DNA of 21,799 nucleotides from positions 62,001 to 83,799 of IMG/VR virus record IMGVR_UViG_3300011154_000001; one strand, given 5' to 3'. Below the pieces are notes generated by a model. The model was not told the DNA's origin and searched no databases. It was given only the letters and a program-made list of their open reading frames with translations. The stretch is from an uncultured virus (IMG/VR IMGVR_UViG_3300011154_000001). Taxonomy: Duplodnaviria > Heunggongvirae > Uroviricota > Caudoviricetes. Positions within the stretch are counted from its first letter, which is position 1. Each line of letters opens with the position of its first letter. Made by a program: the position numbers and the translations under genes. Below, piece by piece: positions 2,853 through 18,903 of this stretch.

Positions 2853-2895
2853 ATCAATTACCCCGTGTTTTTCAGCATTAATTTAAACGAAACAC

Positions 2896-3601: not shown

Positions 3602-3602
3602 A

Positions 3603-3776: not shown

Positions 3777-4072
3777 ATCAATTTCTCCTGTTCTAAATAA
3801 TTCTTATACACTTGTAGAGGAACTTGAATCTCCTTTTCCTCTGGAAGCCGTTCTACTTCTTTACTCCAATCTTTACCAAGAAGCTGTGTATCAAATACAG
3901 TTGTTTCTCCAGAAATTCTATGAATCTTATAGCAGTGATTATCTGCGAAGACAACATCATAATCTTTGAAATATTCTGTTGAATCTTGGTGTGTCACTCC
4001 TAACAATACAAAACGCCTAGGCTTCATTTTCCTAAGCTGTTTTACTGTCATTATTGTGTAAGTCTCAGTCAT
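3773..4072 (-). CDS. hypothetical phage protein
   Basis: 99-aa ORF, AGGAG RBS. Confidence 0.7.
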   Translation of the reverse strand: MTETYTIMTVKQLRKMKPRRFVLLGVTHQDSTEYFKDYDVVFADNHCYKIHRISGETTVFDTQLLGKDWSKEVERLPEEKEIQVPLQVYKNYLEQEKLI

Positions 4073-4361
4073 TACCGTAGCTCCTAATAGGCGGCGGTGC
4101 AGCAGGGCCTTTCCTGTCTTTCCTCATATTTTCTTTCCATTGCCCAATCATATCATTACAATGACTCTTCGAGGAACAGCAATCTTCACAGCCATATAGC
4201 CAAGCCCTGTTAACTTGTAATTGGAATCTATAACTATGTTCTCTCCTAAACTCCTTTTTACAAAATAAGCAACCCTGCCAAAAGAACAATCCATAATGGT
4301 TATAGATCACTCCATGAGCTACGTTGTTGTATTTTTCTGATCGTCTTTTCATTCTTCCCAT
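4065..4361 (-). CDS. Cys-rich hypothetical protein
   Basis: CLFCKKEFRRE and CEDCC motifs; Pro-rich tail. Confidence 0.7.
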   Translation of the reverse strand: MGRMKRRSEKYNNVAHGVIYNHYGLFFWQGCLFCKKEFRREHSYRFQLQVNRAWLYGCEDCCSSKSHCNDMIGQWKENMRKDRKGPAAPPPIRSYGND

Positions 4362-4561
4362 CCTGTGTAATCACAGAAACACTCATCACCAGATTGTGCA
4401 TAACAATAACACCTATCGTCCACCAAAGCTGTTCCTTTACAAGCCCCACAAATCTCCCAAGGACCACTCCCTAAATACTGCACAAATCCAGGTTTTGTTT
4501 CACAGTCCTCCCACTCCTTACAGCACCAATCACAATTACGTTGTCTATATTTATATTTCAT
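4349..4561 (-). CDS. Cys-rich zinc-binding small protein
   Basis: CDWC, CGACKGT, CYC..CFC; start may be ATG at 4560 region; AGGAG RBS. Confidence 0.65.
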   Translation of the reverse strand: MKYKYRQRNCDWCCKEWEDCETKPGFVQYLGSGPWEICGACKGTALVDDRCYCYAQSGDECFCDYTGWEE

Positions 4562-4601
4562 TCTAACTCTCCTAAAAGCTTTATTGCATTTTCAAGATAA
4601 A

Positions 4602-4694
4602 TTATTGTGGTTTACCAGCTACTTGGTCTTGATGTTTATAAAATTCAGCTTCTTTCTGGCGATTCAACATCTCTTTCAGTTCTTCACGAGTCAT
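4602..4694 (-). CDS. 30-aa hypothetical protein
   Basis: MTREELKEMLNRQKEAEFYKHQDQVAGKPQ; GAGGAGA RBS; ATGA overlap. Confidence 0.45.
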   Translation of the reverse strand: MTREELKEMLNRQKEAEFYKHQDQVAGKPQ

Positions 4695-4858
4695 TTCTTT
4701 TCTCTCTCCTCAAATTCAGAACATTTTACTTCTTTTAGTTTATCATCTTTGAAAATATGAATTACTTGCATTGTGTTGAAAGGAAGTTTGCTACAATTTT
4801 CCAAAGCTTTCTCACATACACAGCACATAAATCCTCTCGGAATGTGTGTAATCTCCAC
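4691..4858 (-). CDS. 55-aa Cys-rich protein, reminiscent of lambdoid NinD-like proteins
   Basis: HIPRGFMCCVC...CSKLPFNTM...VKCSEF; GTG start with GAGGAG RBS; family call from memory. Confidence 0.55.
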   Translation of the reverse strand: MEITHIPRGFMCCVCEKALENCSKLPFNTMQVIHIFKDDKLKEVKCSEFEEREKK

Positions 4859-4867
4859 TAACTCTCC

Positions 4868-5080
4868 TCAGCTCAAATAAAACACTTCATAGCCGCTTTG
4901 TACCAGTTGGATTATACTCTTCTTTCCTGTGCTTGTCACGATAGAATTGTCTCGTGCCCGGTAGATAGCATCTTGGAAAAACACTGAGTTTATTTTATCA
5001 ACGATAACTAAGTCTCCATAATAGAGTTGAGGTTTGTTATCAATATTTGATATTTTTAGTAGTTTTGATGGTTCAGTCAT
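4868..5080 (-). CDS. hypothetical phage protein
   Basis: 70-aa ORF, AAGGA RBS. Confidence 0.6.
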   Translation of the reverse strand: MTEPSKLLKISNIDNKPQLYYGDLVIVDKINSVFFQDAIYRARDNSIVTSTGKKSIIQLVQSGYEVFYLS

Positions 5081-5222
5081 CTTGTTTGTCCTTTTCCTTA
5101 ATATTCATCTGTTCGTTATAATATTTCAAAGCTTCTCTATCATTTGTGGCTTGTGCTAGTAAGAGCACATCTTCAAGGGAATAGCACGGGAGAGTGTACC
5201 ACGCATTGGTCTCTTTAGTCAT
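5073..5222 (-). CDS. 49-aa hypothetical protein
   Basis: MTKETNAWYTLPCYSLEDV...; AAGGAG RBS; ATGA coupling. Confidence 0.55.
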   Translation of the reverse strand: MTKETNAWYTLPCYSLEDVLLLAQATNDREALKYYNEQMNIKEKDKQDD

Positions 5223-5386
5223 TTGTAAATCTCCTTGATTAGTTGTCCCTTCTGCTCTGTAGTCAAGAACTCGGCACGATTAATAACACCAACTGCACGT
5301 GTCAAAGCTAAAAACCATTGCTCTGTAGCTTTGTGTTCGGCTGCTTTGATCTGCTCTTTCAATTCACGTTCAACAGAAGGTAACAT
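5219..5386 (-). CDS. 55-aa hypothetical protein
   Basis: MLPSVERELKEQIKAAEHK...; GGGAGA RBS. Confidence 0.55.
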   Translation of the reverse strand: MLPSVERELKEQIKAAEHKATEQWFLALTRAVGVINRAEFLTTEQKGQLIKEIYK

Positions 5387-5388
5387 AG

Positions 5389-5823
5389 CTATTCTCCCAT
5401 AAACTCATATTGATATAGTGGATCAATAAATTCTACATCATTTGATTGGCAATGTAAAATTCCATATTTGTCACATTGAATCTTTACACGCTCAATGATT
5501 TTTCGTGATTGTGCTTTACGAGATTCATAGGCCGATAGCTTAAATACTTTTGTGAATGGTGTATCCTCTATATCGTGATACAGATACTTACCCTCGTTCC
5601 TCACGATGTATACACGATGCGGATAGCGCACTTTATCTGTATCATCGTAAACCCATACAGCGTTGTGTAATTTCACCATTGTAGTAAAGCTTACTGTTTG
5701 CTCCCCAACACCAAAATCATAATCAAACTCATAACCTCCCGTACGTGAACGGTGATACATCATAGAACTTGCAAAAGCATCTAGGCTAGCAAGCTGAATA
5801 TGCAGCGTATCTTTAGTTTCCAT
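5389..5823 (-). CDS. hypothetical phage protein
   Basis: Start re-assigned to METKDT (GAGGG RBS). Confidence 0.7.
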   Translation of the reverse strand: METKDTLHIQLASLDAFASSMMYHRSRTGGYEFDYDFGVGEQTVSFTTMVKLHNAVWVYDDTDKVRYPHRVYIVRNEGKYLYHDIEDTPFTKVFKLSAYESRKAQSRKIIERVKIQCDKYGILHCQSNDVEFIDPLYQYEFMGE

Positions 5824-5833
5824 TTTATTACCC

Positions 5834-5947
5834 TCAATGGTCGTTATCAAATTTAGTCGTGATCTTACCACATAGTTTACAACGGAACTGTGAAAAGTTT
5901 CCTCCAGCGGGTCCGTAATAGCGCCATTCGTGTCCAAAAATACACAT
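5834..5947 (-). CDS. 37-aa DUF1660-like zinc-ribbon peptide
   Basis: MCIFGHEW...FRCKLCGK (C-x-FGH-x-W...CxxCG); GAGGAGA RBS. Confidence 0.55.
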   Translation of the reverse strand: MCIFGHEWRYYGPAGGNFSQFRCKLCGKITTKFDNDH

Positions 5948-5958
5948 ACCTACTCTCC

Positions 5959-6213
5959 TCAATTAATATTCGACAAACCTAAGCTGTAATTAATGCTATC
6001 ATCATTTTTGCAAGAATACAAATCTAATCTCTCTGATTCTTCAACTAAAAGTTCCATTGCAAGCTCAGAAATAAGCTTCTTACAAAGCTGAACACATTCG
6101 TTAATCTCTTTCCCACCATAAAGTTTGTGGTGATGTTCTGGTTGATAACTCGCCCATTCAATCATTTGTTTTTGAATGCGGATAAGAGCTTCATAACGTT
6201 GTTGTGTGTTCAT
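5959..6213 (-). CDS. hypothetical phage protein
   Basis: 84-aa ORF. Confidence 0.65.
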   Translation of the reverse strand: MNTQQRYEALIRIQKQMIEWASYQPEHHHKLYGGKEINECVQLCKKLISELAMELLVEESERLDLYSCKNDDSINYSLGLSNIN

Positions 6214-6214
6214 T

Positions 6215-6382
6215 TTATTTACCTAAGTTAAGATAACGAGTTTCAATTTTATACTGCATATATTGTGCAGCACCCGTACTTTCCTTCTCTTTGAGAACCA
6301 TTTCTTCTGCGTCTTCTCTGTTTCGGTAAATAGAGTGGATTTTCCACTCATCCCAAGCATACCATAAAATATAAATATCCAT
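6215..6382 (-). CDS. 55-aa hypothetical protein
   Basis: MDIYILWYAWDEWKIHSIYRNREDAEE...; AAGGAGA RBS. Confidence 0.6.
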   Translation of the reverse strand: MDIYILWYAWDEWKIHSIYRNREDAEEMVLKEKESTGAAQYMQYKIETRYLNLGK

Positions 6383-6510
6383 TAACTTTTCTCCTTAAGT
6401 AATTTCGTGTACCACTGTAAGAGATTTAAATACGATTGTTCTGTGCTGTCAAGGTCTTTCTTTTGCCTCAACGTACGAATGTCTTCAATAATCCAATCTT
6501 CTGGTTTCAT
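6382..6510 (-). CDS. 42-aa hypothetical protein
   Basis: MKPEDWIIEDIRTLRQKK...; AAGGAGA RBS; ATGA overlap. Confidence 0.55.
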   Translation of the reverse strand: MKPEDWIIEDIRTLRQKKDLDSTEQSYLNLLQWYTKLLKEKS

Positions 6511-6698
6511 TCTTTCTCCTTAGCTTTCTTGATAACGTCTTCAAGCTGCGTCTTAATAAGAATCAATTCTCCTAGACTGGGAATATCTAGTTTGCTTGCC
6601 ACCCGTTCAGCTTTACGACAAGCTCTATCTACGTTCAATAGTATTGACTCTAGGTCTTTTAAAATAGCCTTACGACTTGCCACTTTTCTTTCCTCCAA
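6507..6698 (-). CDS. hypothetical phage protein
   Basis: 63-aa helical ORF; start uncertain (TTG or internal GTG). Confidence 0.55.
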   Translation of the reverse strand: MEERKVASRKAILKDLESILLNVDRACRKAERVASKLDIPSLGELILIKTQLEDVIKKAKEKE

Positions 6699-6725
6699 TA
6701 AAAATAGCCCTTACTCACAGTGTTA

Positions 6726-6754
6726 ATAGTACACCAAGAATAAAGGCTATGCAA
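6726..6754 (-). promoter_or_regulatory. sigma70-type promoter embedded in an inverted repeat
   Basis: TTGCAT-17-TACTAT; arms ATAGCCTTTATTC / GAGTAAGGGCTAT followed by a T-run. Confidence 0.6.
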
Positions 6755-6755
6755 A

Positions 6756-7190
6756 TTATGTTTGATAAATTTTTACTTCAATACCAAGCTCTTCTGATAG
6801 AGCTAGTGTATTACTATTGTCTCCCCAACGGCTTTTGAAGTCTTCTCCTCCCTCATAGCATACAACCTTAGTAAGCTTTCGTTGTTTCATGATGCTTAGG
6901 CACTTAGGGCACGGTGGGTGGCTAATGTAAATCGTGCAGCCGTCTAGGTAAGTCCTATTTGAGAACAACATGCAATTTTCTTCAGCGTGTAATGTATGCG
7001 CATATTTGAAGGTTCTGTCATTTAGCCGTTCGTTAGTATCTTCAAGACCACGAGCAAATCCATTGAATCCAAAAGCTACAGGATTACCATTCTCATCAAT
7101 AATACAGCTTCCTACTTTTGTAGAAGGATCTTTAGACCAAGATGCTACAAGCATTGCAAGGTCCAAGTACCGTTTATCCCATTTATTCAT
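6756..7190 (-). CDS. dCMP deaminase
   Basis: SKDPSTKVG, GFNG, HAEEN and PCPKC zinc-binding motifs. Confidence 0.95.
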   Translation of the reverse strand: MNKWDKRYLDLAMLVASWSKDPSTKVGSCIIDENGNPVAFGFNGFARGLEDTNERLNDRTFKYAHTLHAEENCMLFSNRTYLDGCTIYISHPPCPKCLSIMKQRKLTKVVCYEGGEDFKSRWGDNSNTLALSEELGIEVKIYQT

Positions 7191-7426
7191 TCTGCAATCA
7201 CAATTGATACAAAGTCGAAAACATCTGTTTGATACTTAGTTTGAAGCTCTTCTAATTTTGTTTCGCTTAGGAAATAAACACTGCCTTCTACCATCTCACA
7301 GAATTCATCTTCTCTAAAGTTTGGGGATAGGTATGTATTTTCGTACCTATGATCTTTAATTGCAAAGATTCCTTCTGGATTCTTATTTTCCAAATACTTG
7401 ATAACGTCTTTATTCTTCATTACCAT
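7187..7426 (-). CDS. hypothetical phage protein
   Basis: 79-aa ORF, ATGA-coupled to the deaminase. Confidence 0.7.
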   Translation of the reverse strand: MVMKNKDVIKYLENKNPEGIFAIKDHRYENTYLSPNFREDEFCEMVEGSVYFLSETKLEELQTKYQTDVFDFVSIVIAE

Positions 7427-7629
7427 TCCATTTTACTCCCATCTTCTTCTAAAAGGTGAACAACGATACCATGATACTCCAGTGCTGCCAAGAGGTGTGA
7501 TTCAGAATCTACACGAATTCCTACTAAATCGTTTTCATCAGCGATCTTAAATAGCAAATCCCCAATAAAATTTGATTCAACACCGTTCATTACAAATTTA
7601 TCACCAATTGCTTGAATTATGTAGCTCAT
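7420..7629 (-). CDS. hypothetical phage protein
   Basis: 69-aa ORF, AAGGAGA RBS. Confidence 0.7.
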   Translation of the reverse strand: MSYIIQAIGDKFVMNGVESNFIGDLLFKIADENDLVGIRVDSESHLLAALEYHGIVVHLLEEDGSKMEW

Positions 7630-7630
7630 T

Positions 7631-8038
7631 TTAAATCTCTCCTTCTAGATAAACTCTCATTGCCCAAGTGACTTGCCGTCTTGGTCTGTCCGAATGATCA
7701 TACACAACTCCATCAATAACTGCAATAGCATGGCCACATAAAGCTACGTAATATCTTCCTTTCGGATGCTTTTCACAAAACTTATTAAGCTGAATTCTAT
7801 TTTCTCTTGTGTAAGGCCCGACCTTATGTTTTGTTTTCTTCAAGCTTTGCGGAAGTACTTTACTGCTGTGGATACCACATTTGTTTTTCCTATTGCAAGC
7901 ATTTTTCAAATGACTGTGTGCTTTCTCGTATGTTGTATTAAAGACTTTAGCAAAAGCTTTTACAGTGCAGTCATTCCACTCATTCAATCTTTTTGAAGCT
8001 TTAATTAACTCCTCATCTAGTGGTGCGTATTGGTACAT
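7631..8038 (-). CDS. conserved phage protein with possible Cys-His-Asp triad
   Basis: DCTVKA ... GHAIAVIDGVVYD. Confidence 0.7.
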   Translation of the reverse strand: MYQYAPLDEELIKASKRLNEWNDCTVKAFAKVFNTTYEKAHSHLKNACNRKNKCGIHSSKVLPQSLKKTKHKVGPYTRENRIQLNKFCEKHPKGRYYVALCGHAIAVIDGVVYDHSDRPRRQVTWAMRVYLEGEI

Positions 8039-8047
8039 AAGAACCCC

Positions 8048-8326
8048 TCAATATTTCTTTTGTCCTTTGCGGGTGCCGACACCAGTGCAAGTATAATTAC
8101 CCGAACCTGCTGATTGCTTCGCTGTACGAAGTGTATATTTACCATCGAAATGCTCTTTAACGTAGTCTACACATTTCTGTCTATCTCGTGTATTAAAGAA
8201 CAAATAATCTCCGGTTGCAAGCTGAATGTAATACTTCCCTTTAGCATTGAAGATAAAACTTCCAGACTCTTCGTCATAAAGTTCAATATCTGACTCTGCT
8301 ACTAGAGTTGTCTTTAATTCTGACAT
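8048..8326 (-). CDS. hypothetical phage protein
   Basis: 92-aa ORF, GAGG RBS. Confidence 0.7.
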   Translation of the reverse strand: MSELKTTLVAESDIELYDEESGSFIFNAKGKYYIQLATGDYLFFNTRDRQKCVDYVKEHFDGKYTLRTAKQSAGSGNYTCTGVGTRKGQKKY

Positions 8327-8335
8327 ATAAACCTC

Positions 8336-8539
8336 TCAAATCAAATAATTACCTTTAGGAAGTTCCATATCCCGAAACTTAAATTCTGCAACCAGTTCTT
8401 GATAAACTTTCTGACACTTTCCGCGTGCAATAGACTCAGCATACCAAGACGGACCTTCTGCTGCATTGAAATAGCTTAGTTCCTTGGCTACTTTATCGTA
8501 AAGATTGATAAGCTCTTCATCGGTGTGTTCGTTGTACAT
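8336..8539 (-). CDS. hypothetical phage protein
   Basis: Start re-assigned to MYNEHT (AGGAGA RBS). Confidence 0.7.
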   Translation of the reverse strand: MYNEHTDEELINLYDKVAKELSYFNAAEGPSWYAESIARGKCQKVYQELVAEFKFRDMELPKGNYLI

Positions 8540-8552
8540 TATTTTCTCCTGC

Positions 8553-9077
8553 TTATTTCTTAATTTCTTCAAATATAATGGTTTCTGGTAGCATATCAAA
8601 ACAAACGTATACACTGCTGAATGGTGGATTCAAAGAAGGTTTCGGATCATCGTAGTTTTTAAAATAAGATACTCGACGGTTTAGATACATAATTTCAAAA
8701 TAATTATTTTTAAACATATCGAACCGTTTTTGAGATTCGAAAAGTCCAACTACACCTACGAGCATCGCGAAAGGTTTTTCTAGCTCAAACAGCCTTTGAA
8801 AAACTTCACCTTTCAATGAGTAAGGCGGATTAGAAATAATGTAATCGTACTGATCTTCGTTAGGAGCGTAGTTGAAGAAATCCTTTCCGTCTTCAATGTG
8901 CGAAAGAATTACTTTGCAGCCGTGGTTAACCAACATTTTATAGAAATTTGATTTTTCTGTGTCGAACGGGCACCACACGGTACTTCCAGGTTTTACGTAC
9001 TTAAGGATTGGCAGAATTGCGTATTCCGGCGTATAGAATTCATCGTTACCACTACCTGCCACTTTATCCATCTTCAT
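8553..9077 (-). CDS. small orphan DNA amino-methyltransferase (probably N6-adenine)
   Basis: DEFYTP, VWCPFD, DFF and catalytic ISNPPYS motifs; GGAGG RBS. Confidence 0.8.
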   Translation of the reverse strand: MKMDKVAGSGNDEFYTPEYAILPILKYVKPGSTVWCPFDTEKSNFYKMLVNHGCKVILSHIEDGKDFFNYAPNEDQYDYIISNPPYSLKGEVFQRLFELEKPFAMLVGVVGLFESQKRFDMFKNNYFEIMYLNRRVSYFKNYDDPKPSLNPPFSSVYVCFDMLPETIIFEEIKK

Positions 9078-9238
9078 TAAATGTCCTCCAATGCTGAAAC
9101 AAGACCATCAAAATCTTCTTCTTTACCAAGAACAGTTGCTAGTGCAACTACTGAATCAATATCTACACCGTATTCTTCGGAAAGTTCTTGCAGATACTGA
9201 TTCCTATTAAGGTATCCGTTTTCTTCATAAATACTCAT
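9077..9238 (-). CDS. 53-aa acidic hypothetical protein
   Basis: Start MSIYEENGY with GAGGAGG RBS; ends EDFDGLVSALED. Confidence 0.7.
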   Translation of the reverse strand: MSIYEENGYLNRNQYLQELSEEYGVDIDSVVALATVLGKEEDFDGLVSALEDI

Positions 9239-9267
9239 TCTGTTCCTCCTCTTAAACAAGTGCGTCC

Positions 9268-9296
9268 ATGATAAGCAACGCACTGTTTTCTGTCAA
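9268..9296 (-). promoter_or_regulatory. sigma70-type promoter embedded in an inverted repeat
   Basis: TTGACA-17-TATCAT; AAACAGTGCGT / ACGCACTTGTTT arms flank the -10. Confidence 0.7.
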
Positions 9297-9311
9297 TTGT
9301 TTTTGTAGAAA

Positions 9312-10067
9312 TTACTCAGCTTTTTGTTCTACGGGTTTTGGCTTCTTACGAGCAGCTTTCTTTTCAGCTACAAGCTTCTTCTTTTCAAAAGCTTCCAATG
9401 CACGTTCTACAGCAACCTCTACCATCTCTTCAAATGTGGGCATCTGTTCTAAATCCTCTTCTTCTAGACCTGCTCCACTTTCTGTACAATCTGGATTATT
9501 ACAACCTCGTCCTTGTCGTGCCTCAAACATTACATCCAGTCTTTCACCGATCTGCTTATGGTCTAGCCAGATTTCGCGGCCACGCCGAAGGTCTTCTAAC
9601 TCTTCAGGATTAAGGAAGTCTTGATACACTTCGTACATAACAGATTCAGCATGCTTACCTACGAAGTCCACATGGTCACGAACATTCTGTACGATACCTC
9701 CAGACCCAAAGGCTGCGCTATGGCACATCATAGTGGCATAAGGCTTTACCTCAATACCCGGACAGCTAAGTGCAATCAAAGAAGCTGCTGAATAAGCCTC
9801 AGCTTCAATAATAGCAATTACATCTGCTTCACAAGCTTCAATACAGTTTTTGAAGATAATAGCAGAATTCAAATTTCCACCCGGACTTGACACATGGATT
9901 CGCACCAAATCTCCCTGGTGGGCGGAACGCAATACTTGGAAAGCGTGTCGGTAGTAGGTAGGATCTTTAATTTCTTCGTCTAGATAAATATCAAAAGCGT
10001 TGTAAGTCATTGAGCTTTGGCTAACTTCGCATTGCTCTTTAAACATCGGGATCATTTCGTCTGACAT
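9312..10067 (-). CDS. clpP: ClpP-like serine protease
   Basis: IHVSSPGG, AYSAAS (nucleophile Ser), MMCH; start MSDEMIP with AAGGAG RBS. Confidence 0.85.
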   Translation of the reverse strand: MSDEMIPMFKEQCEVSQSSMTYNAFDIYLDEEIKDPTYYRHAFQVLRSAHQGDLVRIHVSSPGGNLNSAIIFKNCIEACEADVIAIIEAEAYSAASLIALSCPGIEVKPYATMMCHSAAFGSGGIVQNVRDHVDFVGKHAESVMYEVYQDFLNPEELEDLRRGREIWLDHKQIGERLDVMFEARQGRGCNNPDCTESGAGLEEEDLEQMPTFEEMVEVAVERALEAFEKKKLVAEKKAARKKPKPVEQKAE

Positions 10068-10071
10068 ATTG

Positions 10072-10707
10072 CTACTCCTTCGTAAAACCATAATATTTAA
10101 GTTCTGCTTCTTCTCGGGCTTTGACAGCATCTTCAAAGGATTCCCCGTAGTATAAGATTATTTGTTCGCCATCTTTTGCAATTCTCGACTCCCATACACC
10201 TCTATCATCTCGCCAACGAACGCCTGTCCTACCAGAGCTATTTGTAGACTTTCTTTTCTGATCAAAGCTTTGTAAACTAAGAGACGCCCATTCACAAGTT
10301 TCTTTCGAGTAGATTTTAGCCCCATTGATACGATTTATAGTTGTTCCTTCAGGTCTTATTCCCATGTCTTCCAAAAAGTTCTCGAAAGAACCGCCTTTAG
10401 TTGTGTCCCAGCGTTCACACAGAGTCACATCACCATGCCACTCTTCGTAGTCCTGACTCCGAGTGCGTGCGCAAAGTTTCTGCCAAGATCTGTAAGTCGG
10501 TGTACCAGTCATTCCATGGCTCTTGAGTTCTCTAGGCTGACATCCACAGTCTGTAAATTTGTTATGAATCAATCTAGGTGAAATAAGCTCTATAGTATTA
10601 CCGCAATCACATAGACAGTTCCATATAATACTTTTACTTTTATGCTTTTTATCTGACCTGTTTACAACCAGTAGTAAACCAAATCTCTTATTTGTTAAGT
10701 CTTTCAT
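10072..10707 (-). CDS. HNH-type homing endonuclease with C-terminal AP2 domain
   Basis: DLTNKRFGLL..WNCLCDCG, SFENFLEDMGIRP, SGRTGV..W.SRI..YG.SFEDAVKAREEAE. Confidence 0.85.
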   Translation of the reverse strand: MKDLTNKRFGLLLVVNRSDKKHKSKSIIWNCLCDCGNTIELISPRLIHNKFTDCGCQPRELKSHGMTGTPTYRSWQKLCARTRSQDYEEWHGDVTLCERWDTTKGGSFENFLEDMGIRPEGTTINRINGAKIYSKETCEWASLSLQSFDQKRKSTNSSGRTGVRWRDDRGVWESRIAKDGEQIILYYGESFEDAVKAREEAELKYYGFTKE

Positions 10708-11486
10708 TTTCCTCGATTCTCGTACTTTTCAAATGCTTGGCCCCACATCTTAGCCTCCTCTGAGCGGACGCAATATTCCCAAGAATCAAAATCAATTAAG
10801 GTTACAGGAATATTTGCATATTGTGCAACATCTAGCAAGTATTGTAGTCCTGAGTTTTTCTTAAGATCTTGCTGGCGTAAATCACCAGTAATCACCGTGG
10901 TCGAGTTATACCCTTGGCGCCCAACTAGACTTTTTGCAACTTCAGGATCCAGATCTTCGGCCTCATCCACGAGAATTAGGCAGTTATCCCAAGAACGACC
11001 CTTCACATGCTCCAAGCTGAGTTGCTCGATTTTACCATTTGCAAGCATCGCCTCAAAATGTGCAACACCCATACGCTCTTTCATTGTGTTGGTGATCGGA
11101 GCGCACCATGGCTCCATTTTCTCATCTTTTGACCCTTTCAAAAATCCTACAGACTTGCCTTTACCTTCTGCGGGTCGCGCAATAATAACTTTATCAATCT
11201 TTTTATCCATGAGCCAATCGGAGGCAATTACAGATGGGATATAAGTTTTCGAGCTTCCCCAAACACCAACACAAATCACACACGAATCTTCTTGAACAGC
11301 CTTGATGTAGTCTTTCTGCTTATCGTTCATAGGAACGAGCGGCTTACGAAGGCTACTAGTGTGTGCGTACTTCTCTTTGTTTTCTTGGCTTACTCCCCCA
11401 TTCCGAGTCTTGCGGGTACGTTTACGAGGAACCTGAATCTCCTCTCCGTCTACAACTACAAGTTCCATACGACCTTTGCTGCCCAT
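10704..11486 (-). CDS. phoH: PhoH-family ATPase
   Basis: IIARP, VGFLKG...KMEPW, KGRS, ILVDEA, ITGDLRQQD, SGL, VRS motifs. Confidence 0.92.
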   Translation of the reverse strand: MGSKGRMELVVVDGEEIQVPRKRTRKTRNGGVSQENKEKYAHTSSLRKPLVPMNDKQKDYIKAVQEDSCVICVGVWGSSKTYIPSVIASDWLMDKKIDKVIIARPAEGKGKSVGFLKGSKDEKMEPWCAPITNTMKERMGVAHFEAMLANGKIEQLSLEHVKGRSWDNCLILVDEAEDLDPEVAKSLVGRQGYNSTTVITGDLRQQDLKKNSGLQYLLDVAQYANIPVTLIDFDSWEYCVRSEEAKMWGQAFEKYENRGK

Positions 11487-11501
11487 AGTTTTATTCCTTA
11501 T

Positions 11502-11801
11502 TCAAATCAAAATAGAGTCAATTGCTTGTTCAATCTGCCGAAGCTGAAAACCTTCCATATCGCCTACCTTTTCACTAAACAACTGCAATTTACTTTTAAA
11601 AGACTCTAATACACGTTTACGGTCATTGTCAAGGTGTCTTGAATACCAACCTCTTACTTTTTGATAGAGTTCTTCAAATGGTACTGTAGAACATACTAAG
11701 CAAAGCATTTCTGTTAGGCTATCAATCTTCCTAGCATATTCCGCTACTAGTTCAGCATTTCTCTTACGATCATCATCGTCCCGTGAATCATAACAGGGCA
11801 T
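11502..11801 (-). CDS. hypothetical phage protein
   Basis: MPCYD...LCLVC...WY..H..ND; AAGGAGA RBS. Confidence 0.7.
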   Translation of the reverse strand: MPCYDSRDDDDRKRNAELVAEYARKIDSLTEMLCLVCSTVPFEELYQKVRGWYSRHLDNDRKRVLESFKSKLQLFSEKVGDMEGFQLRQIEQAIDSILI

Positions 11802-11811
11802 TTAGTTCTCC

Positions 11812-12012
11812 TTATTCAACTTGCTTCAGAGTGACTTGTTCCAAGTAAGCTTCAAAAGTTGCTGCTGCTACATCACCATAGCTTGGTTCTTTACCATCAA
11901 GCTTTTCACGCAAGAATTTCAAAGCTTCATTCTCAACTTTAGCAAACTCGTCCGGATTCTCACAATAATCCATCATCCAAGCATTAAAAGCATCTACAAA
12001 TTTAGTGTTCAT
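11812..12012 (-). CDS. hypothetical phage protein
   Basis: 66-aa ORF, AAGGAGA RBS. Confidence 0.7.
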   Translation of the reverse strand: MNTKFVDAFNAWMMDYCENPDEFAKVENEALKFLREKLDGKEPSYGDVAAATFEAYLEQVTLKQVE

Positions 12013-12296
12013 TAATTCAATTCTCCTTCACGGGGTGTTAAAACGAATTCAAGAAGCTTACTAATTTCTCTTGTAAGTGCCATACTGCTCTCACTTACCG
12101 CATTACTGTAGCACACATATTTCTCAGATGCAAGGAATTCCTCAACTTCTTTTACATCTTCCCTAGAAATTCTCTGATCCATTTCTCGCTGAAAGTTTAC
12201 AGATAACTCATCATAATTTAGCTGCTGAAGACAATAAAGAATTTCTGGGCTGTCGCGATATAAGGTTAGCATTGCTTGCTTAAGCACATCACTCAT
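12012..12296 (-). CDS. hypothetical phage protein
   Basis: 94-aa ORF, GAGG RBS. Confidence 0.7.
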   Translation of the reverse strand: MSDVLKQAMLTLYRDSPEILYCLQQLNYDELSVNFQREMDQRISREDVKEVEEFLASEKYVCYSNAVSESSMALTREISKLLEFVLTPREGELN

Positions 12297-12693
12297 ACCC
12301 CACCTCGATTACAAAATGTCCATAAAAATCTGTTTCAACTTTCTGACCACTGTTTGAATACTGATCTTCTTCTGGATTTGTCCAAGCTACTTGGTATGTA
12401 TCGCTATTACCGTCATCGTAGACAATATCAAACCAGCATATATCCTTGTACTTCTCCAATCTTTCTTTTACAGGAACATCGCAAGTTGTTTTACCACCGT
12501 AGCCTATGAAGTTTTCTTGAAAAGAAACATAAAGCTTGTTAGCTACGGTGTATTCATGCAAACCTTGTCCATTTGGGTAATAGCTGCGAGATTTATTAAT
12601 ACCTCCTAGATTGAAAGTATAAACATATTCGATTGGAATCTCAACACTCTCACAGTTCTCAAATCCAAAGCTGATTGCCTTTACTTCACTCAT
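12289..12693 (-). CDS. hypothetical phage protein
   Basis: 134-aa ORF with FENCE motif; AGGAG RBS. Confidence 0.7.
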   Translation of the reverse strand: MSEVKAISFGFENCESVEIPIEYVYTFNLGGINKSRSYYPNGQGLHEYTVANKLYVSFQENFIGYGGKTTCDVPVKERLEKYKDICWFDIVYDDGNSDTYQVAWTNPEEDQYSNSGQKVETDFYGHFVIEVGYE

Positions 12694-12928
12694 CTCTCAC
12701 TCCTATAGCTTCTGCTGTGTCAAGACCATGCTTCTTCAAATACTGCCACATAGCTTGATGTTCTTTCAAGATAGCTTCTTTCTCACGAAGGCTTGTCTCA
12801 AGTAAATACTTCAATGTTGTGTTGAAGTCAAGCTTGTGTAGATCAGGATTCAAAAGAATTGTTTGTACAGTTCCGTTTGTACCATCTTTATCTAACCGTT
12901 GCAACCATTCAATTTGATCTTGTTTCAT
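12686..12928 (-). CDS. hypothetical phage protein
   Basis: 80-aa ORF, GGAGG RBS. Confidence 0.7.
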   Translation of the reverse strand: MKQDQIEWLQRLDKDGTNGTVQTILLNPDLHKLDFNTTLKYLLETSLREKEAILKEHQAMWQYLKKHGLDTAEAIGVRDE

Positions 12929-13137
12929 TTATCATCCTCCGATAACCATTTACCAAAACTACTCTCGGATATTAGAATAGTCATTGAAATTAGTGTCCAC
13001 ATAATCCCTGCCGCCAACGGTAGCATGAAGACTACACCAATTACAACTGCTGGATATGTGAAATACATAACCAAGAATGATATAAGAGCCATTGGCACTG
13101 AAATGCTTAGCTGTTTTTGATATTTATTCATCTTCAT
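12925..13137 (-). CDS. two-TM membrane protein
   Basis: Two long hydrophobic stretches. Confidence 0.65.
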   Translation of the reverse strand: MKMNKYQKQLSISVPMALISFLVMYFTYPAVVIGVVFMLPLAAGIMWTLISMTILISESSFGKWLSEDDK

Positions 13138-13447
13138 AAATCAAATCCTCCCAAGTACGTCCATTAATTTGCTGCCATGCCATCCATAATAGCGTAACAG
13201 GCCAAGAAATGCAACACCAAATCATCAGTAATGTTAAAATAGTTGCTACTGTAAAGTTCTCAGGAATTACTTTCCACCTTTCGTCGGGAATCTTACCATC
13301 TTCAATATCTTGTTCATCCATTGCTGAGAATATTTCTTGAATACCAGAATAAAAGCCTCCGATTGGTGTTGTAAGTTTATACAGCCAATTCTTCATAAGC
13401 ATGTATGTGCAAAAGCCGATGAGTAGGTATGCAAGGATGTAGCTCAA
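13124..13447 (-). CDS. two-TM membrane protein
   Basis: YILAYLLIG ... ISWPVTLLW; TTG start, GAGGA RBS. Confidence 0.65.
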   Translation of the reverse strand: MSYILAYLLIGFCTYMLMKNWLYKLTTPIGGFYSGIQEIFSAMDEQDIEDGKIPDERWKVIPENFTVATILTLLMIWCCISWPVTLLWMAWQQINGRTWEDLIYEDE

Positions 13448-13926
13448 TTTGTAATCCTCTTTTCTAGCTTAATTAGTTCCTTCAATACATCTTCTTGCTG
13501 ATGTTGTAAATTAAACTTAGGTAAAAATTTGAAAACTAAACCCGTGTATGTGTGGAAATACTTTAACATGATTTTATCTTCAAAACTCCCCTTCAGTGAT
13601 TTCCTAGAGTATCTTGTAGCAAAAGCCTCTTCTTTAATTACGTCAAGGAGTGGAACTCCTGATTTATAAAGTGACAACTTATCAGAAGTTTTAAGACCTT
13701 TCCTCTTATATCCACTTTTCCTGTAAACTTCATGCCCAACCTCGTGCATGAATACAGACAAGAAGTTCTTATTAAAAGGTGACATCCAAATGCAGTTTGT
13801 CATCTTCTTATTAGACCATTCAATATTAATGTGCGTAGCTCTGTGACCAAACCTAAAAGGTAGTGGGATAATATTATACTTCTTACACACTTTTAAAGCG
13901 TAAATCCATTCTCCTATCTTATTCAT
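13444..13926 (-). CDS. putative zincin metallopeptidase-like protein
   Basis: FMHEVGH (HExxH) plus downstream EEAFA; AAGGAGA RBS. Confidence 0.6.
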   Translation of the reverse strand: MNKIGEWIYALKVCKKYNIIPLPFRFGHRATHINIEWSNKKMTNCIWMSPFNKNFLSVFMHEVGHEVYRKSGYKRKGLKTSDKLSLYKSGVPLLDVIKEEAFATRYSRKSLKGSFEDKIMLKYFHTYTGLVFKFLPKFNLQHQQEDVLKELIKLEKRITN

Positions 13927-14048
13927 CCCATCTCTCCTTCCAAATATTACTTTTCCAGGCTCTGTGCTGCGTTTATAGCGACGTTCTCTTCTCTTTTGAT
14001 GTAGGGTACTGGGGCACGCCTGCAGGCCCTTAAATCGCTTAATTTACC

Positions 14049-14279
14049 CTAGTAATTGAAGTTCGTTGGAAGATTCATCCAAGCCTCTTCGTGTTTACTA
14101 CTATACACACCATCAGAACCTTTTACCACAATTTCCAAACAAGCATCAAAGCCATCCTCTCTTGGGTGAATAATTACAGCTTCGTTATCACAACCTTCAA
14201 TGTAAAGCAATACATCTACTACATTGCCACGATTAAAATTACCAACCATTGTTGTTACTCGGTATTTTACTGTTTGCAT
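14049..14279 (-). CDS. hypothetical phage protein
   Basis: 76-aa ORF, AGGGG RBS. Confidence 0.6.
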   Translation of the reverse strand: MQTVKYRVTTMVGNFNRGNVVDVLLYIEGCDNEAVIIHPREDGFDACLEIVVKGSDGVYSSKHEEAWMNLPTNFNY

Positions 14280-14289
14280 TGTATTTCCC

Positions 14290-14451
14290 CTATTTCAAGC
14301 TATCCACATATTGCTGTGGTGTTTTACCACGAATGTAATATTCTCGCATCATCACGCTGATCATATCAGCATCTAAAGGACGAGTTGTCAAGCTTTTTAC
14401 TTGTTCAACCCACCAAGCCCATCCGAACGGGGTGTTTGGTATAGTTTTCAT
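14290..14451 (-). CDS. 53-aa hypothetical protein
   Basis: MKTIPNTPFGWAWWVEQV...; ATGA overlap; GGAG RBS. Confidence 0.55.
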   Translation of the reverse strand: MKTIPNTPFGWAWWVEQVKSLTTRPLDADMISVMMREYYIRGKTPQQYVDSLK

Positions 14452-14948
14452 TGAAATTTCTCCATTAATTTTAGACGTTCTAGTTTATCTTCATCTTCTT
14501 TAACTCTTCGCTGTCGTGTGAATTGCTCAAGCAAAATCCTTTCTTTACGCTCTTTGGACCTCAAACGAAACTTCATAAACGCTTGCATGATATACGAAAG
14601 CTCCCACCCATTTAGACTGAACTTAAGCCCTTTAACAGAGTAAAGCTTACCTCGGTGAACAATTCCATAATACTCGTCTCCGTTCTGTCTGTCAAGCAGT
14701 TTAGCATAGCCTGTGTAGCTATTATCTTTGCTCATCCAATCGTAAATCTCTCCCCAAAAACCAGTTTCAACAGCATAAGCGTATTTGTGGAATGAAAGCT
14801 TAAATCGTTTTGGATTGTTGTTCAAGCATTTCACAAAAGAAATTACAGGATCTCCAACCATTGGATCAATAGCTTCTTTAGGTTGTGGGTTGCGTACAGG
14901 TGGTTTCTGTGATGAAGGCGATCCAAACAGCCAGTTTAAAAATTTCAT
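14448..14948 (-). CDS. hypothetical phage protein
   Basis: 166-aa ORF, AAGGAGA RBS. Confidence 0.75.
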   Translation of the reverse strand: MKFLNWLFGSPSSQKPPVRNPQPKEAIDPMVGDPVISFVKCLNNNPKRFKLSFHKYAYAVETGFWGEIYDWMSKDNSYTGYAKLLDRQNGDEYYGIVHRGKLYSVKGLKFSLNGWELSYIMQAFMKFRLRSKERKERILLEQFTRQRRVKEDEDKLERLKLMEKFQ

Positions 14949-15184
14949 TTCTTAATCTCCTTACGAATATCCTCTGCTTTATGGAATCGTCCAGCAAGCT
15001 CTACATAATCTACGCTATTGTAGCTGAATTCTCCGTCCTCTACAACATACGGAATACCAAATTCTAGTCCATCCACTTGAAATCCTCCATAGCCGTAGCA
15101 TGACTCTGTGATTTCTATTTCTACACCATATTCTTCCAGAAGGCAAGCTAATTTTTCAAAGAATTCTTTACTTTTCTGTTGCAT
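14945..15184 (-). CDS. hypothetical phage protein
   Basis: Start re-assigned to MQQKSK (GAGGA RBS). Confidence 0.65.
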   Translation of the reverse strand: MQQKSKEFFEKLACLLEEYGVEIEITESCYGYGGFQVDGLEFGIPYVVEDGEFSYNSVDYVELAGRFHKAEDIRKEIKK

Positions 15185-15185
15185 G

Positions 15186-15365
15186 TCAGATTTCCTCTTG
15201 CGCTGTTTGGATAATCTTAAATTTAACCTGCTTCCCTTCAATAATAATGCAGTAGGTATCCTCTCCCGTATTTTGTGCAGCAGCATTTAATGCTTGTTCT
15301 TTAGTGTCGAATTCCATGTAATCGTGAGAACCATATTGGCTTTGAACCACAACAAAATATTTCAC
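15186..15365 (-). CDS. 59-aa hypothetical protein
   Basis: GTG in GTGA overlap, AAGGAGA RBS; MKYFVVVQSQYGSHDYMEFDTKEQAL... Confidence 0.6.
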   Translation of the reverse strand: MKYFVVVQSQYGSHDYMEFDTKEQALNAAAQNTGEDTYCIIIEGKQVKFKIIQTAQEEI

Positions 15366-15631
15366 TTAAAGATCTCCTTATTAAACTTCCAATCTTTATA
15401 GCTAATTTCAGTACCATCAGCAAGAATTACAACCTGCTCAACTGCGTTAGGTTCACGACCAGATTTGTACAATTGTTCAGCACCATATTCTGATAGTCCA
15501 TGATTTGTCAGTCTGCCATTTTCACAAGTGAATTCCATATGCCTAAGAGCTTCAATAAACTCCCTATCCTTTCGACGTTTTAAAAGTTCTGCTGGTGTGT
15601 TTGTACGCTTAAACCACCCAAATAGATCCAT
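15362..15631 (-). CDS. hypothetical phage protein
   Basis: 89-aa ORF, TAATG coupling. Confidence 0.7.
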   Translation of the reverse strand: MDLFGWFKRTNTPAELLKRRKDREFIEALRHMEFTCENGRLTNHGLSEYGAEQLYKSGREPNAVEQVVILADGTEISYKDWKFNKEIFK

Positions 15632-15828
15632 TACTCATTACTCCAAGGTAGATCAGAACTGTGGAAAATCTCGCAGTAATCGTAGCCTGTCAAGAATCCA
15701 CCTTTATCTTCGTACTCTTGCTTTACACGCAGAGCTTCATCTTGATCAAATGTGACAAGCACGATGTTGCTAATACCACCTAGAGGATAATACATATCCC
15801 ATTTACACACAATCCAAAAATCTTTCAT
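15631..15828 (-). CDS. hypothetical phage protein
   Basis: First gene of leftward unit; YYPLGG motif; AGGAGA RBS. Confidence 0.7.
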   Translation of the reverse strand: MKDFWIVCKWDMYYPLGGISNIVLVTFDQDEALRVKQEYEDKGGFLTGYDYCEIFHSSDLPWSNE

Positions 15829-15893
15829 CTTTCTCTCCTAAGCCTTTCAGGTATTTCATTTATGTTTGCACATCTCTGTGCTGTGTGGGGTAT

Positions 15894-15922
15894 AGAATAG
15901 CAGGGGTAGGGGATGGATGCAA
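15894..15922 (-). promoter_or_regulatory. leftward sigma70 promoter
   Basis: TTGCAT-17-TATTCT with extended TG. Confidence 0.65.
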
Positions 15923-15956
15923 GCGGTAGTGGAAAATATTTTTGTGTGGAATGTGC

Positions 15957-15984
15957 TTGACACTGCCCTTAAAGCTGCTAGAAT
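15957..15984 (+). promoter_or_regulatory. rightward sigma70 promoter (divergent pair)
   Basis: TTGACA-16-TAGAAT with extended TG. Confidence 0.65.
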
Positions 15985-16000
15985 TGATGGAGGTAAGGAA

Positions 16001-16288
16001 AGGTACTTAATTTGTCCCATATGTATAGGACATTTGAGGTCATACTGTATAGGATAAAATGTCTCACTATATAGAAAGAGTAAGAAAGAAAGATAAAATA
16101 GATTTTAAAAGCTAATAGGATTAAAAATCCCATACTTCTTAAACAGCTTGAAAAGCGAAAGCTTGATTTTGACATTCATTTGTTGTAGTGTGCAGGGCTG
16201 TTGATGCTTTTAATCTTTTAATCATTTTTGGTGTTAAGAACGAAGTGATAGAGAAAGAATTATGTATGGGATAATTTATCCCATATGT
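16001..16288. repeat. iteron/operator-like 21-bp quasi-palindromes; candidate replication origin
   Basis: Perfect TATGGGATAATTTATCCCATA at 16265-16285; degenerate copies starting about 16001, 16024, 16048 and 16114; A-rich tract 16072-16110. Confidence 0.6.
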
Positions 16289-17888: not shown

Positions 17889-17965
17889 GGGTCTATAGCA
17901 TAATTGGTTAATGCAGAGAACTCATAATTCTTTGATTTCCAGTTCAAGTCTGGATGGACCCACCA
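17889..17965 (+). tRNA. tRNA-CAT (elongator Met or Ile2)
   Basis: Acceptor GGGTCTA/TGGACCC, loop CTCATAA, TTCAAGT, encoded CCA; lacks initiator features. Confidence 0.92.
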
Positions 17966-17976
17966 AGTTTTGCAAA

Positions 17977-18059
17977 TGGTCAGTAGCCGAGTTGGTAGCA
18001 GGCGACGTACTGTTAATGCGTAGGGAAACCCACCGTAGGTTCGAGTCCTACCTGACCAG
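17977..18059 (+). tRNA. tRNA-Asn(GTT) with long variable arm
   Basis: TGGTCAG/CTGACCA, loop CTGTTAA, variable arm GGG-AAA-CCC, G73, followed by CAA rather than CCA. Confidence 0.88.
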
Positions 18060-18070
18060 CAAATTTCAAA

Positions 18071-18145
18071 GGCCGTATGATGTAAGGAACAGCATATTTC
18101 TCTTCTAAAGAAATCGACTTGGTTTGAATCCAAGTACGGCTGCCA
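18071..18145 (+). tRNA. tRNA-Arg(TCT)
   Basis: GGCCGTA/TACGGCT, TTTCT-CTTCTAA-AGAAA, T-loop TTTGAAT, CCA. Confidence 0.88.
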
Positions 18146-18148
18146 AAT

Positions 18149-18224
18149 GTTTGGGTGTTCTAATAGGCAAGATGCAGGTCTCCAAAACCTTGGGATTATG
18201 GTTCGAGTCCATACCCATTCGCCA
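18149..18224 (+). tRNA. tRNA-Trp(CCA), possibly degenerate
   Basis: Loop CTCCAAA, TATGG-TTCGAGT-CCATA, G73-CCA; two U-U mismatches in acceptor stem. Confidence 0.75.
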
Positions 18225-18384
18225 AAACCACATCAGCGAAATAAAGCAAGTAACGATGTGTATGCTTCACGTTTTGTTCTCCTCTCGACGTGAAGCTATC
18301 TCTCTGTATTACATTCTCTCCTCATGTGATATAGAGCTATATGCAGCTAATGGTCTTTCTCCTTGCCGTTGGCTGCATTATTTT
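18225..18384 (+). ncRNA. small RNA with three anti-SD (UCUCCU) stem-loops
   Basis: Hairpins 18264-18296, 18302-18336 and 18341-18378 (10-14 bp, G-U pairs on + strand); every loop contains TCTCCT; ends in a U-rich run. Confidence 0.75.
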
Positions 18385-18510: not shown

Positions 18511-18903
18511 ATGCCAGCACCAATCGGGAACAAACAGGGACTATCATCTAATCCCCAGAATCGTAATACGAAGGGAATTACTGGACCTCGTGGTAGACGT
18601 AGCGAACTTCGTAAACTCCTGAAGAAGCTTTCACAGCTTGAAGATGCTTCCCTTGAGAACATTGAAAAGTCTATCAAAGGTGAAGATGTTCCTAAAGACC
18701 AGCTTTCCAGCTCTAAGTGGGTTATTGAAAGGATTGTTTCAACGACTACAGCAGCAGTTGGTGAAGAACAACGTAAGAACGCGATTAAGAAGTCTCTGGA
18801 AGAGAATTCAGAAGATACACCTGAAGAAGATAATTCGGAAGGTGTAACTGAGAAACCTGTTCGCTTTTCTCTTCATATGTTGCCCTCAAAGAAAGAAGAT
18901 TAA
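18511..18903 (+). CDS. probable terminase small subunit
   Basis: MPAPIGNK N-terminus and SSNPQNRN..G..GPRG motif, helical core, position next to tRNA cluster. Confidence 0.5.
   Translation: MPAPIGNKQGLSSNPQNRNTKGITGPRGRRSELRKLLKKLSQLEDASLENIEKSIKGEDVPKDQLSSSKWVIERIVSTTTAAVGEEQRKNAIKKSLEENSEDTPEEDNSEGVTEKPVRFSLHMLPSKKED

Follow-up and report, generated by a model that had tools for sequence, protein, structure and literature searches.

The NfeR1/alpha-r14 RNAs form three hairpins that differ in their stems and share one anti-Shine-Dalgarno (anti-SD) loop word, and their loops silence targets redundantly, according to the excerpted text of the study describing them (PMC10746234). Among phage-encoded RNAs, the available passages of a 2025 review name only AsxR and the c4 RNA of P1 and P7 as acting on ribosome-binding sites (RBSs); c4 is encoded upstream in its operon, and its loops pair around the RBS and block translation (PMC12197685). 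Here, we analyzed a stretch of 21,799 nucleotides from an uncultured virus of the Caudoviricetes (IMG/VR record IMGVR_UViG_3300011154_000001, positions 62,001 to 83,799), called the window below. It encodes, 3' of four tRNA genes, a structured RNA with three hairpins whose loops all carry the anti-SD word YUCUCCU. Our results showed that this is a real, conserved, plus-strand structured RNA whose stems vary while its UCUCCU loops are fixed, and that the loops match RBSs far more in one defined class of the phage's own genes than in the class adjoining the RNA.

The three hairpins (H1, H2, and H3; Table 1) have unrelated stems and matching loops, exactly as described in a first-pass annotation made from the letters of the DNA alone. 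That annotation placed them directly after the CCA of tRNA-Trp, which was not the case, since a conserved 5' hairpin (H0) intervenes. The U-run that it saw after the hairpins is present, with the correction that it doubles as the 5' arm of a conserved long-range helix, H4. In the window, H4 encloses a variable insert (18405-18461), and its 3' arm stops 18 nt 5' of the start codon of the next gene. The plus strand of the region folds at -54.8 kcal/mol (z = -6.2; 0 of 200 shuffles were equally good) and the minus strand at -40.5 kcal/mol (z = -2.3); together with six G-U pairs in the stems of H1, H2, and H3 (one, two, and three, respectively), this confirmed the strand proposed earlier. In the window, as in each related locus, there is one instance of the triple-loop pattern, and it is always confined to a single strand. 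The whole 83.8-kb genome has four TCTCC sites in loops closed by at least nine pairs, and three of them are those of H1-H3. A cmscan of positions 17700-18600 against Rfam at E <= 10 returned tRNAs and chance matches only, and a gathering-score scan of the window and five related loci returned only tRNAs. An open reading frame (ORF) that runs across tRNA-Trp and the RNA (18124-18399) was rejected as coding, given the non-triplet indels in the loops and the paired stem changes between copies.

Relatives were gathered through the 130-aa protein encoded downstream, an exact 28-base word, the loop-word pattern, and scans of whole records. This gave at least 14 full and two cut distinct copies, all in related uncultured phages, which fall into three types with unrelated stems. 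Such relatives are present in bioreactor and freshwater habitats. Type A comprises ten full copies (the window, L017, L002, L003, L004, L005, L015, L019, L020, and L023). Type B has three copies (L010, L013, and L014), in which the stems differ throughout and H0 is different. The only copy of type C (L096) has wholly different stems and was found through the loop pattern alone. The scan of viral contigs with this pattern yielded at least 113 stretches, to which a hairpin filter was applied; L096 was the sole new true case among the matches listed, and L049, L103, L125, and L139 were rejected as tandem repeats. The covariance model built from type A (R1) misses type C (E = 0.74, in the wrong place) and misplaces L014. 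A DNA search with positions 17800-18600 against 50,697 isolated phages matched only tRNAs, and no related loci carrying the 158-aa protein encoded upstream were found.

Thirteen full copies were folded singly, and each gave H0 and the three hairpins. RNAalifold on the ten type-A copies returned 41 pairs, eight of them compensatory and none broken. Type B was then added in an alignment of 15 matches, in which standard pairs fill 97.9% of 559 cells; sliding the partners by one to three columns lowers this to 21-43%. Of the 41 pairs, 32 have changes on both sides, and none of 500 shuffles attains any of five measures. This alignment is model-fitted and places L014 wrongly, so that its covariation figures lean towards structure. 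The stems are also readable directly: the 14 full copies have eight to ten distinct stems per hairpin, all of them paired. Ten distinct 5' stems were counted in H1 (8 of 9 pairs compensatory), eight stems in H2 (10 of 12), and nine in H3 (12 of 12). UCUCC is kept in all 42 loops and YUCUCCU in 41 of them (14 of 14 in H1 and in H2, 13 of 14 in H3), in loops of 9-18 nt. The pattern expected in the first-pass annotation, stems that covary around a fixed UCUCCU, is the one found among the relatives; the loops are under selection, and the stems are free to change.

H0 is nearly invariant in the ten type-A copies, and types B and C have other stems in its place; once type B is included, two of its six pairs show compensatory changes. 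The loop of the type-B H0 itself contains UCCUCCU. G-U pairs make up 76 of 490 stem pairs on direct reading (15%) and 75 of 559 cells of the model-fitted alignment, and one-sided changes run between G-U and A-U or among U-G, U-A, and C-G. We read the RNA from the plus strand because these G-U pairs would be A-C mismatches on the other one. Each genome has one copy of the RNA. Two alleles of H2 and two of H3 were found in all four combinations, and the hairpin alleles recombine freely. The type of RNA is likewise independent of the similarity of the neighboring 130-aa protein, the two types being shuffled.

In the cuckoo/alpha-r14 RNAs (NfeR1 in Sinorhizobium, CcsR1-4 in Rhodobacter), as in the phage RNA, one unpaired anti-SD word is repeated on unrelated stems; in alpha-r14, the repeated words mask RBSs redundantly (PMC10746234). 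The likeness that the first-pass annotation drew to cuckoo and CcsR RNAs thus stands for the multi-loop anti-SD design, but not for the family model or the loop word. The phage RNA gave no match to the cuckoo/alpha-r14 covariance model even at E <= 10, and the alpha-r14 word as given in the excerpted source, CCUCCUCCC (PMC10746234), is in none of the 42 phage loops, 41 of which have YUCUCCU. The phage RNA also differs in that it belongs to a virulent-type phage, has one copy, lies by tRNAs and ahead of structural genes, and has the extra elements H0 and H4. Its presumed targets are a temporal class of the phage's own genes, whereas those of alpha-r14 are transporter mRNAs. The c4 RNA, which is processed by RNase P, pairs with specific sites in the ant leader of its own operon; here, the adjacent gene has no complement, and the match is to a generic Shine-Dalgarno form. 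Rfam C4 gave no match (cmscan of the region at E <= 10; gathering-score scan of the window and five loci). Sponges such as CsrB and RsmZ have GGA in the loops of the transcribed strand, whereas GGA is found here only in the minus-strand loops.

Small RNAs in or beside tRNA regions occur in other virulent phages. The late sRNA1 and sRNA2 of PAK_P3 lie near tRNAs and are strongly expressed late, with no function assigned in the available part of the report (PMC4933390). For these and for the T4 band C and D RNAs, no anti-SD loops are reported, and they are set apart from the RNA described here by description only. Full-text searches of the literature for phage-encoded anti-SD RNAs found nothing alike. 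We regard the design as the multivalent anti-SD design of the cuckoo type, which in this virulent-type phage has a different word and presumably serves the timing of genes.

The window is the final 21.8 kb of an 83.8-kb virus record (G000) that carries a 77-bp direct terminal repeat. The repeat looks like an assembly overlap and is short enough for one; read in this way, the right end of the window continues into the structural genes that open the record. We compared four complete genomes, G000 and G001 with type A RNA, G003 with type B, and G004 with type C. These genomes and phage M1 share a layout of four strand blocks: a long plus-strand structural block, which starts at the anti-SD-loop RNA; a minus-strand block of replication and nucleotide genes; and two blocks of small genes, one on the plus and one on the minus strand. 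A short plus-strand stretch precedes the tRNAs in all four genomes. The two small-gene blocks and the replication and nucleotide block we take to be middle and early genes.

Genes were called with a simple script of our own (ORFs of at least 40 aa, greedy removal of overlaps). Starts were chosen by pairing to the conserved 16S tail, plus a bonus for ATG and for length. The translation initiation region (TIR) was taken as the 22 nt before the called start codon unless another range is given. In the RBS counts, the late class is the structural block plus the short plus-strand block, and the rest are the genes of the other three blocks.

The two classes differ in their RBSs in every genome. GGAGA at -20 to -3 was present in 8 of 44 late genes and 55 of 126 others in G000, 4 of 46 and 53 of 130 in G001, 1 of 46 and 55 of 149 in G003, and 4 of 43 and 42 of 126 in G004 (p 0.0034 or less in each). 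The base that follows GGAG is A in 205 of 299 non-late sites and in 17 of 55 late ones (p = 2.5e-7); late genes favor UAAGGA, and also AAGGAG followed by a base other than A. The same split was found when TIRs were compared with the loops of their own genome. At least 7 contiguous nt were complementary in 4 of 44 late TIRs and 45 of 126 others in G000, with 2 of 46 and 31 of 130 in G001, 3 of 46 and 41 of 149 in G003, and 2 of 43 and 40 of 126 in G004 (p 0.0035 or less in each). Pooled, these are 11 of 179 structural (late) genes and 157 of 531 non-structural ones (p = 6e-12). All three non-late blocks contribute, on both strands; in block D of G000, the minus-strand block in the window, 15 of 45 called genes have such a match.

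The split holds for genes of at least 80 aa that start with ATG (8/122 vs. 70/213), for those of less than 150 aa (4/88 vs. 135/449), and also for those of at least 150 aa. No difference was found in matches of at least 6 nt to the 16S tail (52 of 179 late genes, 158 of 531 others; p = 0.92). The median energy of duplexes between loops and TIRs is -9.7 kcal/mol for non-late and -7.1 kcal/mol for late genes, and the loop energy minus the 16S energy is -1.8 and 0.0, respectively (p = 2e-11).

The first-pass annotation pointed to copies of the loops in the window. Loop 3 does occur verbatim on the plus strand at 6512-6521 and loop 2 at 4703-4711, both at GGAGA-type sites of genes and with chance expectations of 0.11 and 0.21, and the partial match to loop 1 given for 11805-11812 is present as TCTCCT at 11807-11812. 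Such single verbatim matches carry little weight on their own. TCTCCT as a whole has 34 sites in the window, whereas shuffles have 14.0 +/- 3.6; 30 of the 34 are on the plus strand, 27 of them before 16 kb. The proposed target class, the leftward (minus-strand) genes, has to be replaced by all three non-structural blocks on both strands. The downstream plus-strand genes do lack AGGAGA, which does not occur on the plus strand of the window after 17801. The set that is spared, however, is the whole structural block and not five genes.

The reading that we favor, and that on the sequence comparisons above we would place just short of probable, is that this is a multivalent anti-SD RNA that silences early and middle mRNAs of the GGAGA type and spares the late ones. 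The RNA would be a plus-strand transcript of ~150-260 nt, co-transcribed with the tRNA cluster or another upstream neighbor. Its left end would be made by tRNA 3' processing in some phages, and its right end either at the U-run after H3 or by cleavage within H4. The YUCUCCU loops would pair with GGAGA-type Shine-Dalgarno sites and keep 30S subunits off those mRNAs. The non-structural genes are largely written with (A)GGAGA(A) and the structural genes mostly with UAAGGA, as in the major capsid and sheath genes, or with AAGGAG followed by a non-A base. A stable RNA that builds up would therefore stop the translation of early and middle mRNAs while that of late genes goes on, and it could also silence GGAGA-type mRNAs of the host. 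Timing is the weakest point: the position at the head of the late block suggests late expression, whereas the promoter-like sites upstream point to early expression, and either would suit a stable RNA that builds up.

Strong sites of the T4 protein RegB are GGAG followed by an A-rich tract, as given in the portion of the source at hand (PMC3014915), a form close to the GGAGA(A) found here. The analogy is functional only: RegB is a protein nuclease that needs S1, whereas the agent proposed here would be an RNA that masks and does not cut. The 83.8-kb genome has no match to a RegB homologue (PF10715, REGB_T4) at E <= 1, so the GGAG-based split is not attributable to RegB. We also consider it possible, with more reserve and again from sequence, that the phages follow a translation programme in two forms governed by the RNA, in which the GGAGA(A) sites of early and middle genes would be deliberately switchable, all being turned off together by a stable RNA that accumulates from the tRNA operon, and the UAAGGA sites of structural genes could not be covered.

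The RNA stands at the head of the structural block, which is opened by the gene of the 130-aa protein. This protein has nine homologues (44-91% identity) and one weak PHROG match of unknown function; it belongs to no Pfam or NCBIfam family, has no solved structural relative, and gave no tblastn match in 50,697 isolated phages. From position alone, our guess is that it is the small terminase. Behind it, the plus-strand block encodes terminase, portal, protease, capsid, and tail genes. The RBS of the 130-aa gene is AAAAGGU (AAGAGGU in most relatives) and never GGAG, and its TIR, AAAAGGUA, pairs with the loops at merely -2.2 to -2.7 kcal/mol.

Thirteen of 15 loci have an H4-like helix of 13-20 bp; in L013 and L014 it is weak. 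Read directly, its arms differ by type (AAAGCCUA, AAAGAGUUC, AAAUAGCU, and AAAAUUCCUG) with the pairing kept. In 12 loci, the 3' arm ends 18-33 nt 5' of the start codon. The loop of H4 ranges from 8 to ~95 nt: it holds 8 nt in L002 and similar copies, an insert of ~57 nt in the window, and a shared and conserved one of ~95 nt in L017 and L010, and it is variable at L015 and L020 as well.

Upstream, the neighbor of the RNA is a tRNA gene in the window, L002, L004, L010, L017, L019, L020, and L096; an HNH-type ORF in L005 (1537-1947, minus strand); another ORF in L014 and L015; and a second structured RNA of ~185 nt in L003, L013, and L023. Since a tRNA adjoins the RNA in only some relatives, release by tRNA 3' processing, as first proposed, cannot be general: it is possible in the tRNA-adjoining phages, and it fails as a rule in L005, L014, L015, L003, L013, and L023. 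Some relatives have mobile-looking ORFs beside the RNA, upstream in L005 and downstream in L003. In L003, L013, and L023, the second structured RNA (L003:1760-1950, L013:2076-2275, L014:1700-1905, and L023:680-876) has the last tRNA on one side and the anti-SD-loop RNA on the other, and in L014 an ORF separates it from the latter. RNAalifold on its four sequences gave 46 pairs, 18 of them compensatory, and Rfam has no family that matches it at gathering score or at E <= 10; no hammerhead ribozyme was detected.

Other roles for the RNA were weighed. The loops might serve as a decoy that binds S1 or another phage or host RNA-binding protein, and so titrate or recruit it. Three identical loop words (four in type B) on unrelated stems are also the design of a protein sponge such as RsmZ or CsrB, with another word, and the conservation of YUCUCCU with its U-rich flanks exceeds the 5-6 nt that pairing with a Shine-Dalgarno site needs. 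S1-dependent recognition does exist, since in the accessible portion of the T4 work RegB and S1 act on GGAG followed by an A-rich tract (PMC3014915). A decoy alone, however, does not account for the avoidance of loop-complementary sequence in late TIRs. It also counts against this role that no bacterial protein recognizing UCUCCU loops is known to us, and we regard it as unlikely. We think it equally improbable that H0-H4 are a cis-acting leader of the late operon, that is, the 5' untranslated region of the 130-aa gene, acting as a processing site, a stabilizer, or a switch for this gene and the packaging and structural genes behind it, with H4 as an RNase III-type substrate. The position fits a leader well: the RNA precedes the 130-aa gene in all 15 loci where the gene was seen, including L096, which was found without it; H4 links the U-run after H3 to a point shortly before the start codon in 12 loci; and the window has no convincing terminator between the RNA and the gene. 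In L003, however, a mobile-looking ORF (2279-3000) is inserted between H4 and the 130-aa gene, the gene has a new RBS, and the RNA is intact, which shows that the RNA and H4 together can be separated from the gene downstream. A leader would also leave the fixed loop word unexplained, the TIR of the 130-aa gene is not complementary to the loops, and RNA types and protein types are shuffled against each other.

Two further explanations have very little to recommend them. An RNA read from the minus strand, the alternative named in the first-pass annotation, would show (A)AGGAGA in its three loops and could be a sponge for CsrA or RsmA, each minus-strand loop having A-N-GGA. This is the core of CsrA sites. 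On that strand, however, the G-U pairs counted above (76/490; 75/559) would become A-C mismatches, the fold is much weaker (z of -2.3 against -6.2), and all the neighbors are plus-strand genes; one-sided changes from G-U to A-U and from U-G to U-A or C-G fit selection on the plus strand only. We consider such a sponge very improbable. Hardly more credible is that the hairpins are simply terminators in an array, or insulate the late genes from the tRNA operon, and that the loops have no sequence-specific role. The hairpins do stand in series, and a U-rich run, which is also an arm of H4, adjoins H3; but H1 and H2 have no such run, a terminator scan reported none at 18264-18400, and all 42 loops keep UCUCC while the stems are replaced, whereas the loops of terminators are not conserved.

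Against the silencing of GGAGA-type mRNAs by the RNA, several points have to be set. Between 4 and 9% of late genes carry good loop matches, including the portal gene with AAGGAGAAA. The gene calls are crude, and the choice of starts uses pairing to the 16S tail, by a rule equal for all gene classes. Because the four genomes are related, their tests repeat one history and do not count as independent. Pseudomonas phage M1, which is syntenic and has no three-hairpin RNA, also shows GGAG less often in late genes (13/40 vs. 81/132, p = 0.0019), so part of the split may predate the RNA or be independent of it, as an older habit of these phages to use GGAG sparingly in late genes. With the loops of G000, at least 7 nt were complementary in 6 of 40 late genes of M1 and 28 of 132 others (p = 0.5), and the other loop sets gave p values of 0.038-0.18. 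In phage phiPMW, which likewise has no three-hairpin RNA, the G000 loops gave 4 of 29 and 53 of 163 (p = 0.048), and the other three sets showed no difference. Special to the carriers of the RNA is that non-late genes prefer GGAGA so strongly and that late genes have almost no complements of the loops.

A control with the loops read backwards retained a weaker split (19/179 vs. 88/531, p = 0.054, at 7 nt), which was significant at 6 nt. Part of the signal is therefore due to the AG-richer TIRs of non-late genes, and the control is itself not clean because the word reads nearly the same when reversed. Against the 16S tail, duplex energies are slightly weaker for late TIRs as well (-6.8 vs. -7.7 kcal/mol, p = 2e-4). 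The sigma-70-like promoter matches upstream would make the RNA early and not late, and the silencing of hundreds of mRNAs needs very high levels of the RNA. A look for transcripts across 17880-18900 listed no RNA data set, and the one sequencing run presumed to be RNA matched only parts of the tRNAs, with different flanks.

At ~40860-40890 of M1 (L161, OP714164.2), in an intergenic gap of the late block, lies a single hairpin whose loop is UUGUUCUCCUC and which precedes AUCCUCCU; M1 is not a clean negative because this hairpin has the same loop word. In phiPMW (L027, KU862660.1), a hairpin with a CUCCUAA loop lies directly after tRNA-Trp (~5605-5630). Both hairpins may be reduced relatives of the three-loop design.

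The features of the window are collected in Table 1. The set of tRNAs at the same place in the relatives is different or absent. The tRNA-Asn(GUU) of 84 nt is unusual for an Asn tRNA in that its variable region has an extra arm of ~10 nt (GGGAAACCCA); similar genes occur in phiKZ-like phages of Pseudomonas (83-88% identity). The genes of the PhoH-like protein, the HNH endonuclease, and the ClpP-like protease are consecutive. The scan for sigma-70-like promoters gave 13 sites against 9.2 +/- 3.0 in shuffles, which is weak evidence, barely above the shuffles. Two of the matches (15957-15984 and 17502-17531) are near-consensus (11/12, with TG) and point rightward to the short plus-strand block, the tRNAs, and the RNA. 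The isolated phages closest in portal protein (49-52% identity) infect Pseudomonas, and a tail-fibre-like protein has a match of ~30% to phages of P. putida.

Table 1. Features of the window, in window coordinates
Feature	Position	Strand	Remarks
DprA-like gene	743-1306		
Block D, minus-strand genes	1..16175	-	many AGGAGA-type RBSs complementary to the loops; one of three such blocks in the genome
ClpP-like protease gene	9312-10136	-	
HNH endonuclease gene	10072-10707	-	
PhoH-like gene	10704-11486	-	
Sigma-70-like promoter match TTGACA-18-TATAGT	17502-17531	+	consensus scan
Sigma-70-like promoter match TTGACT-17-TATTCT	17756-17784	+	consensus scan
Terminator-like hairpin	17862-17877		upstream of the tRNAs
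Four tRNA genes	17889..18224	+	directly 5' of the RNA; ARAGORN; Rfam tRNA 40.9-65.8 bits
tRNA-Met-CAU	17889-17965	+	
tRNA-Asn-GUU	17977-18060	+	
tRNA-Arg-UCU	18071-18145	+	
tRNA-Trp-CCA	18149-18224	+	
H0, 5' hairpin	18229-18260	+	stem CACAUC/GAUGUG, 20-nt A-rich loop; minimum free energy folds, RNAalifold pairs 1-6 with 27-32
H1	18264-18273 / loop 18274-18286 / 18287-18296	+	10-bp stem, 13-nt loop UUGUUCUCCUCUC
H2	18302-18314 / loop 18315-18323 / 18324-18336	+	13-bp stem, 9-nt loop UCUCUCCUC
H3	18341-18354 / loop 18355-18364 / 18365-18378	+	14-bp stem, 10-nt loop CUUUCUCCUU
U-rich run AUUAUUUUCU	from 18379	+	directly 3' of H3; also 5' arm of H4
H4, long-range helix	5' arm 18379-18404, 3' arm 18462-18492	+	RNAduplex -22.9 kcal/mol
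130-aa protein gene	18511..18903	+	first gene 3' of the RNA

The temporal control of virulent phages is known mainly from transcription, and in T4 also from repressors and from nucleases that are proteins. A role has been assigned to very few of their regulatory RNAs, as stated in the available text of the PAK_P3 study (PMC4933390), and a term search of the 2025 review gave no such case (PMC12197685). The RNA described here adds an uncatalogued family with good covariation to the repertoire of phage RNAs. If it acts as we propose, it would be a new layer in the timing of phage genes, in which two gene classes are separated by the form of their RBSs; this would explain why Shine-Dalgarno forms differ between the classes and would give a testable rule, with GGAGA sites repressed and UAAGGA sites immune. 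It would then be an RNA counterpart of T4 RegB, the first RNA of a virulent phage known to regulate translation globally, and a compact and programmable off-switch for translation.

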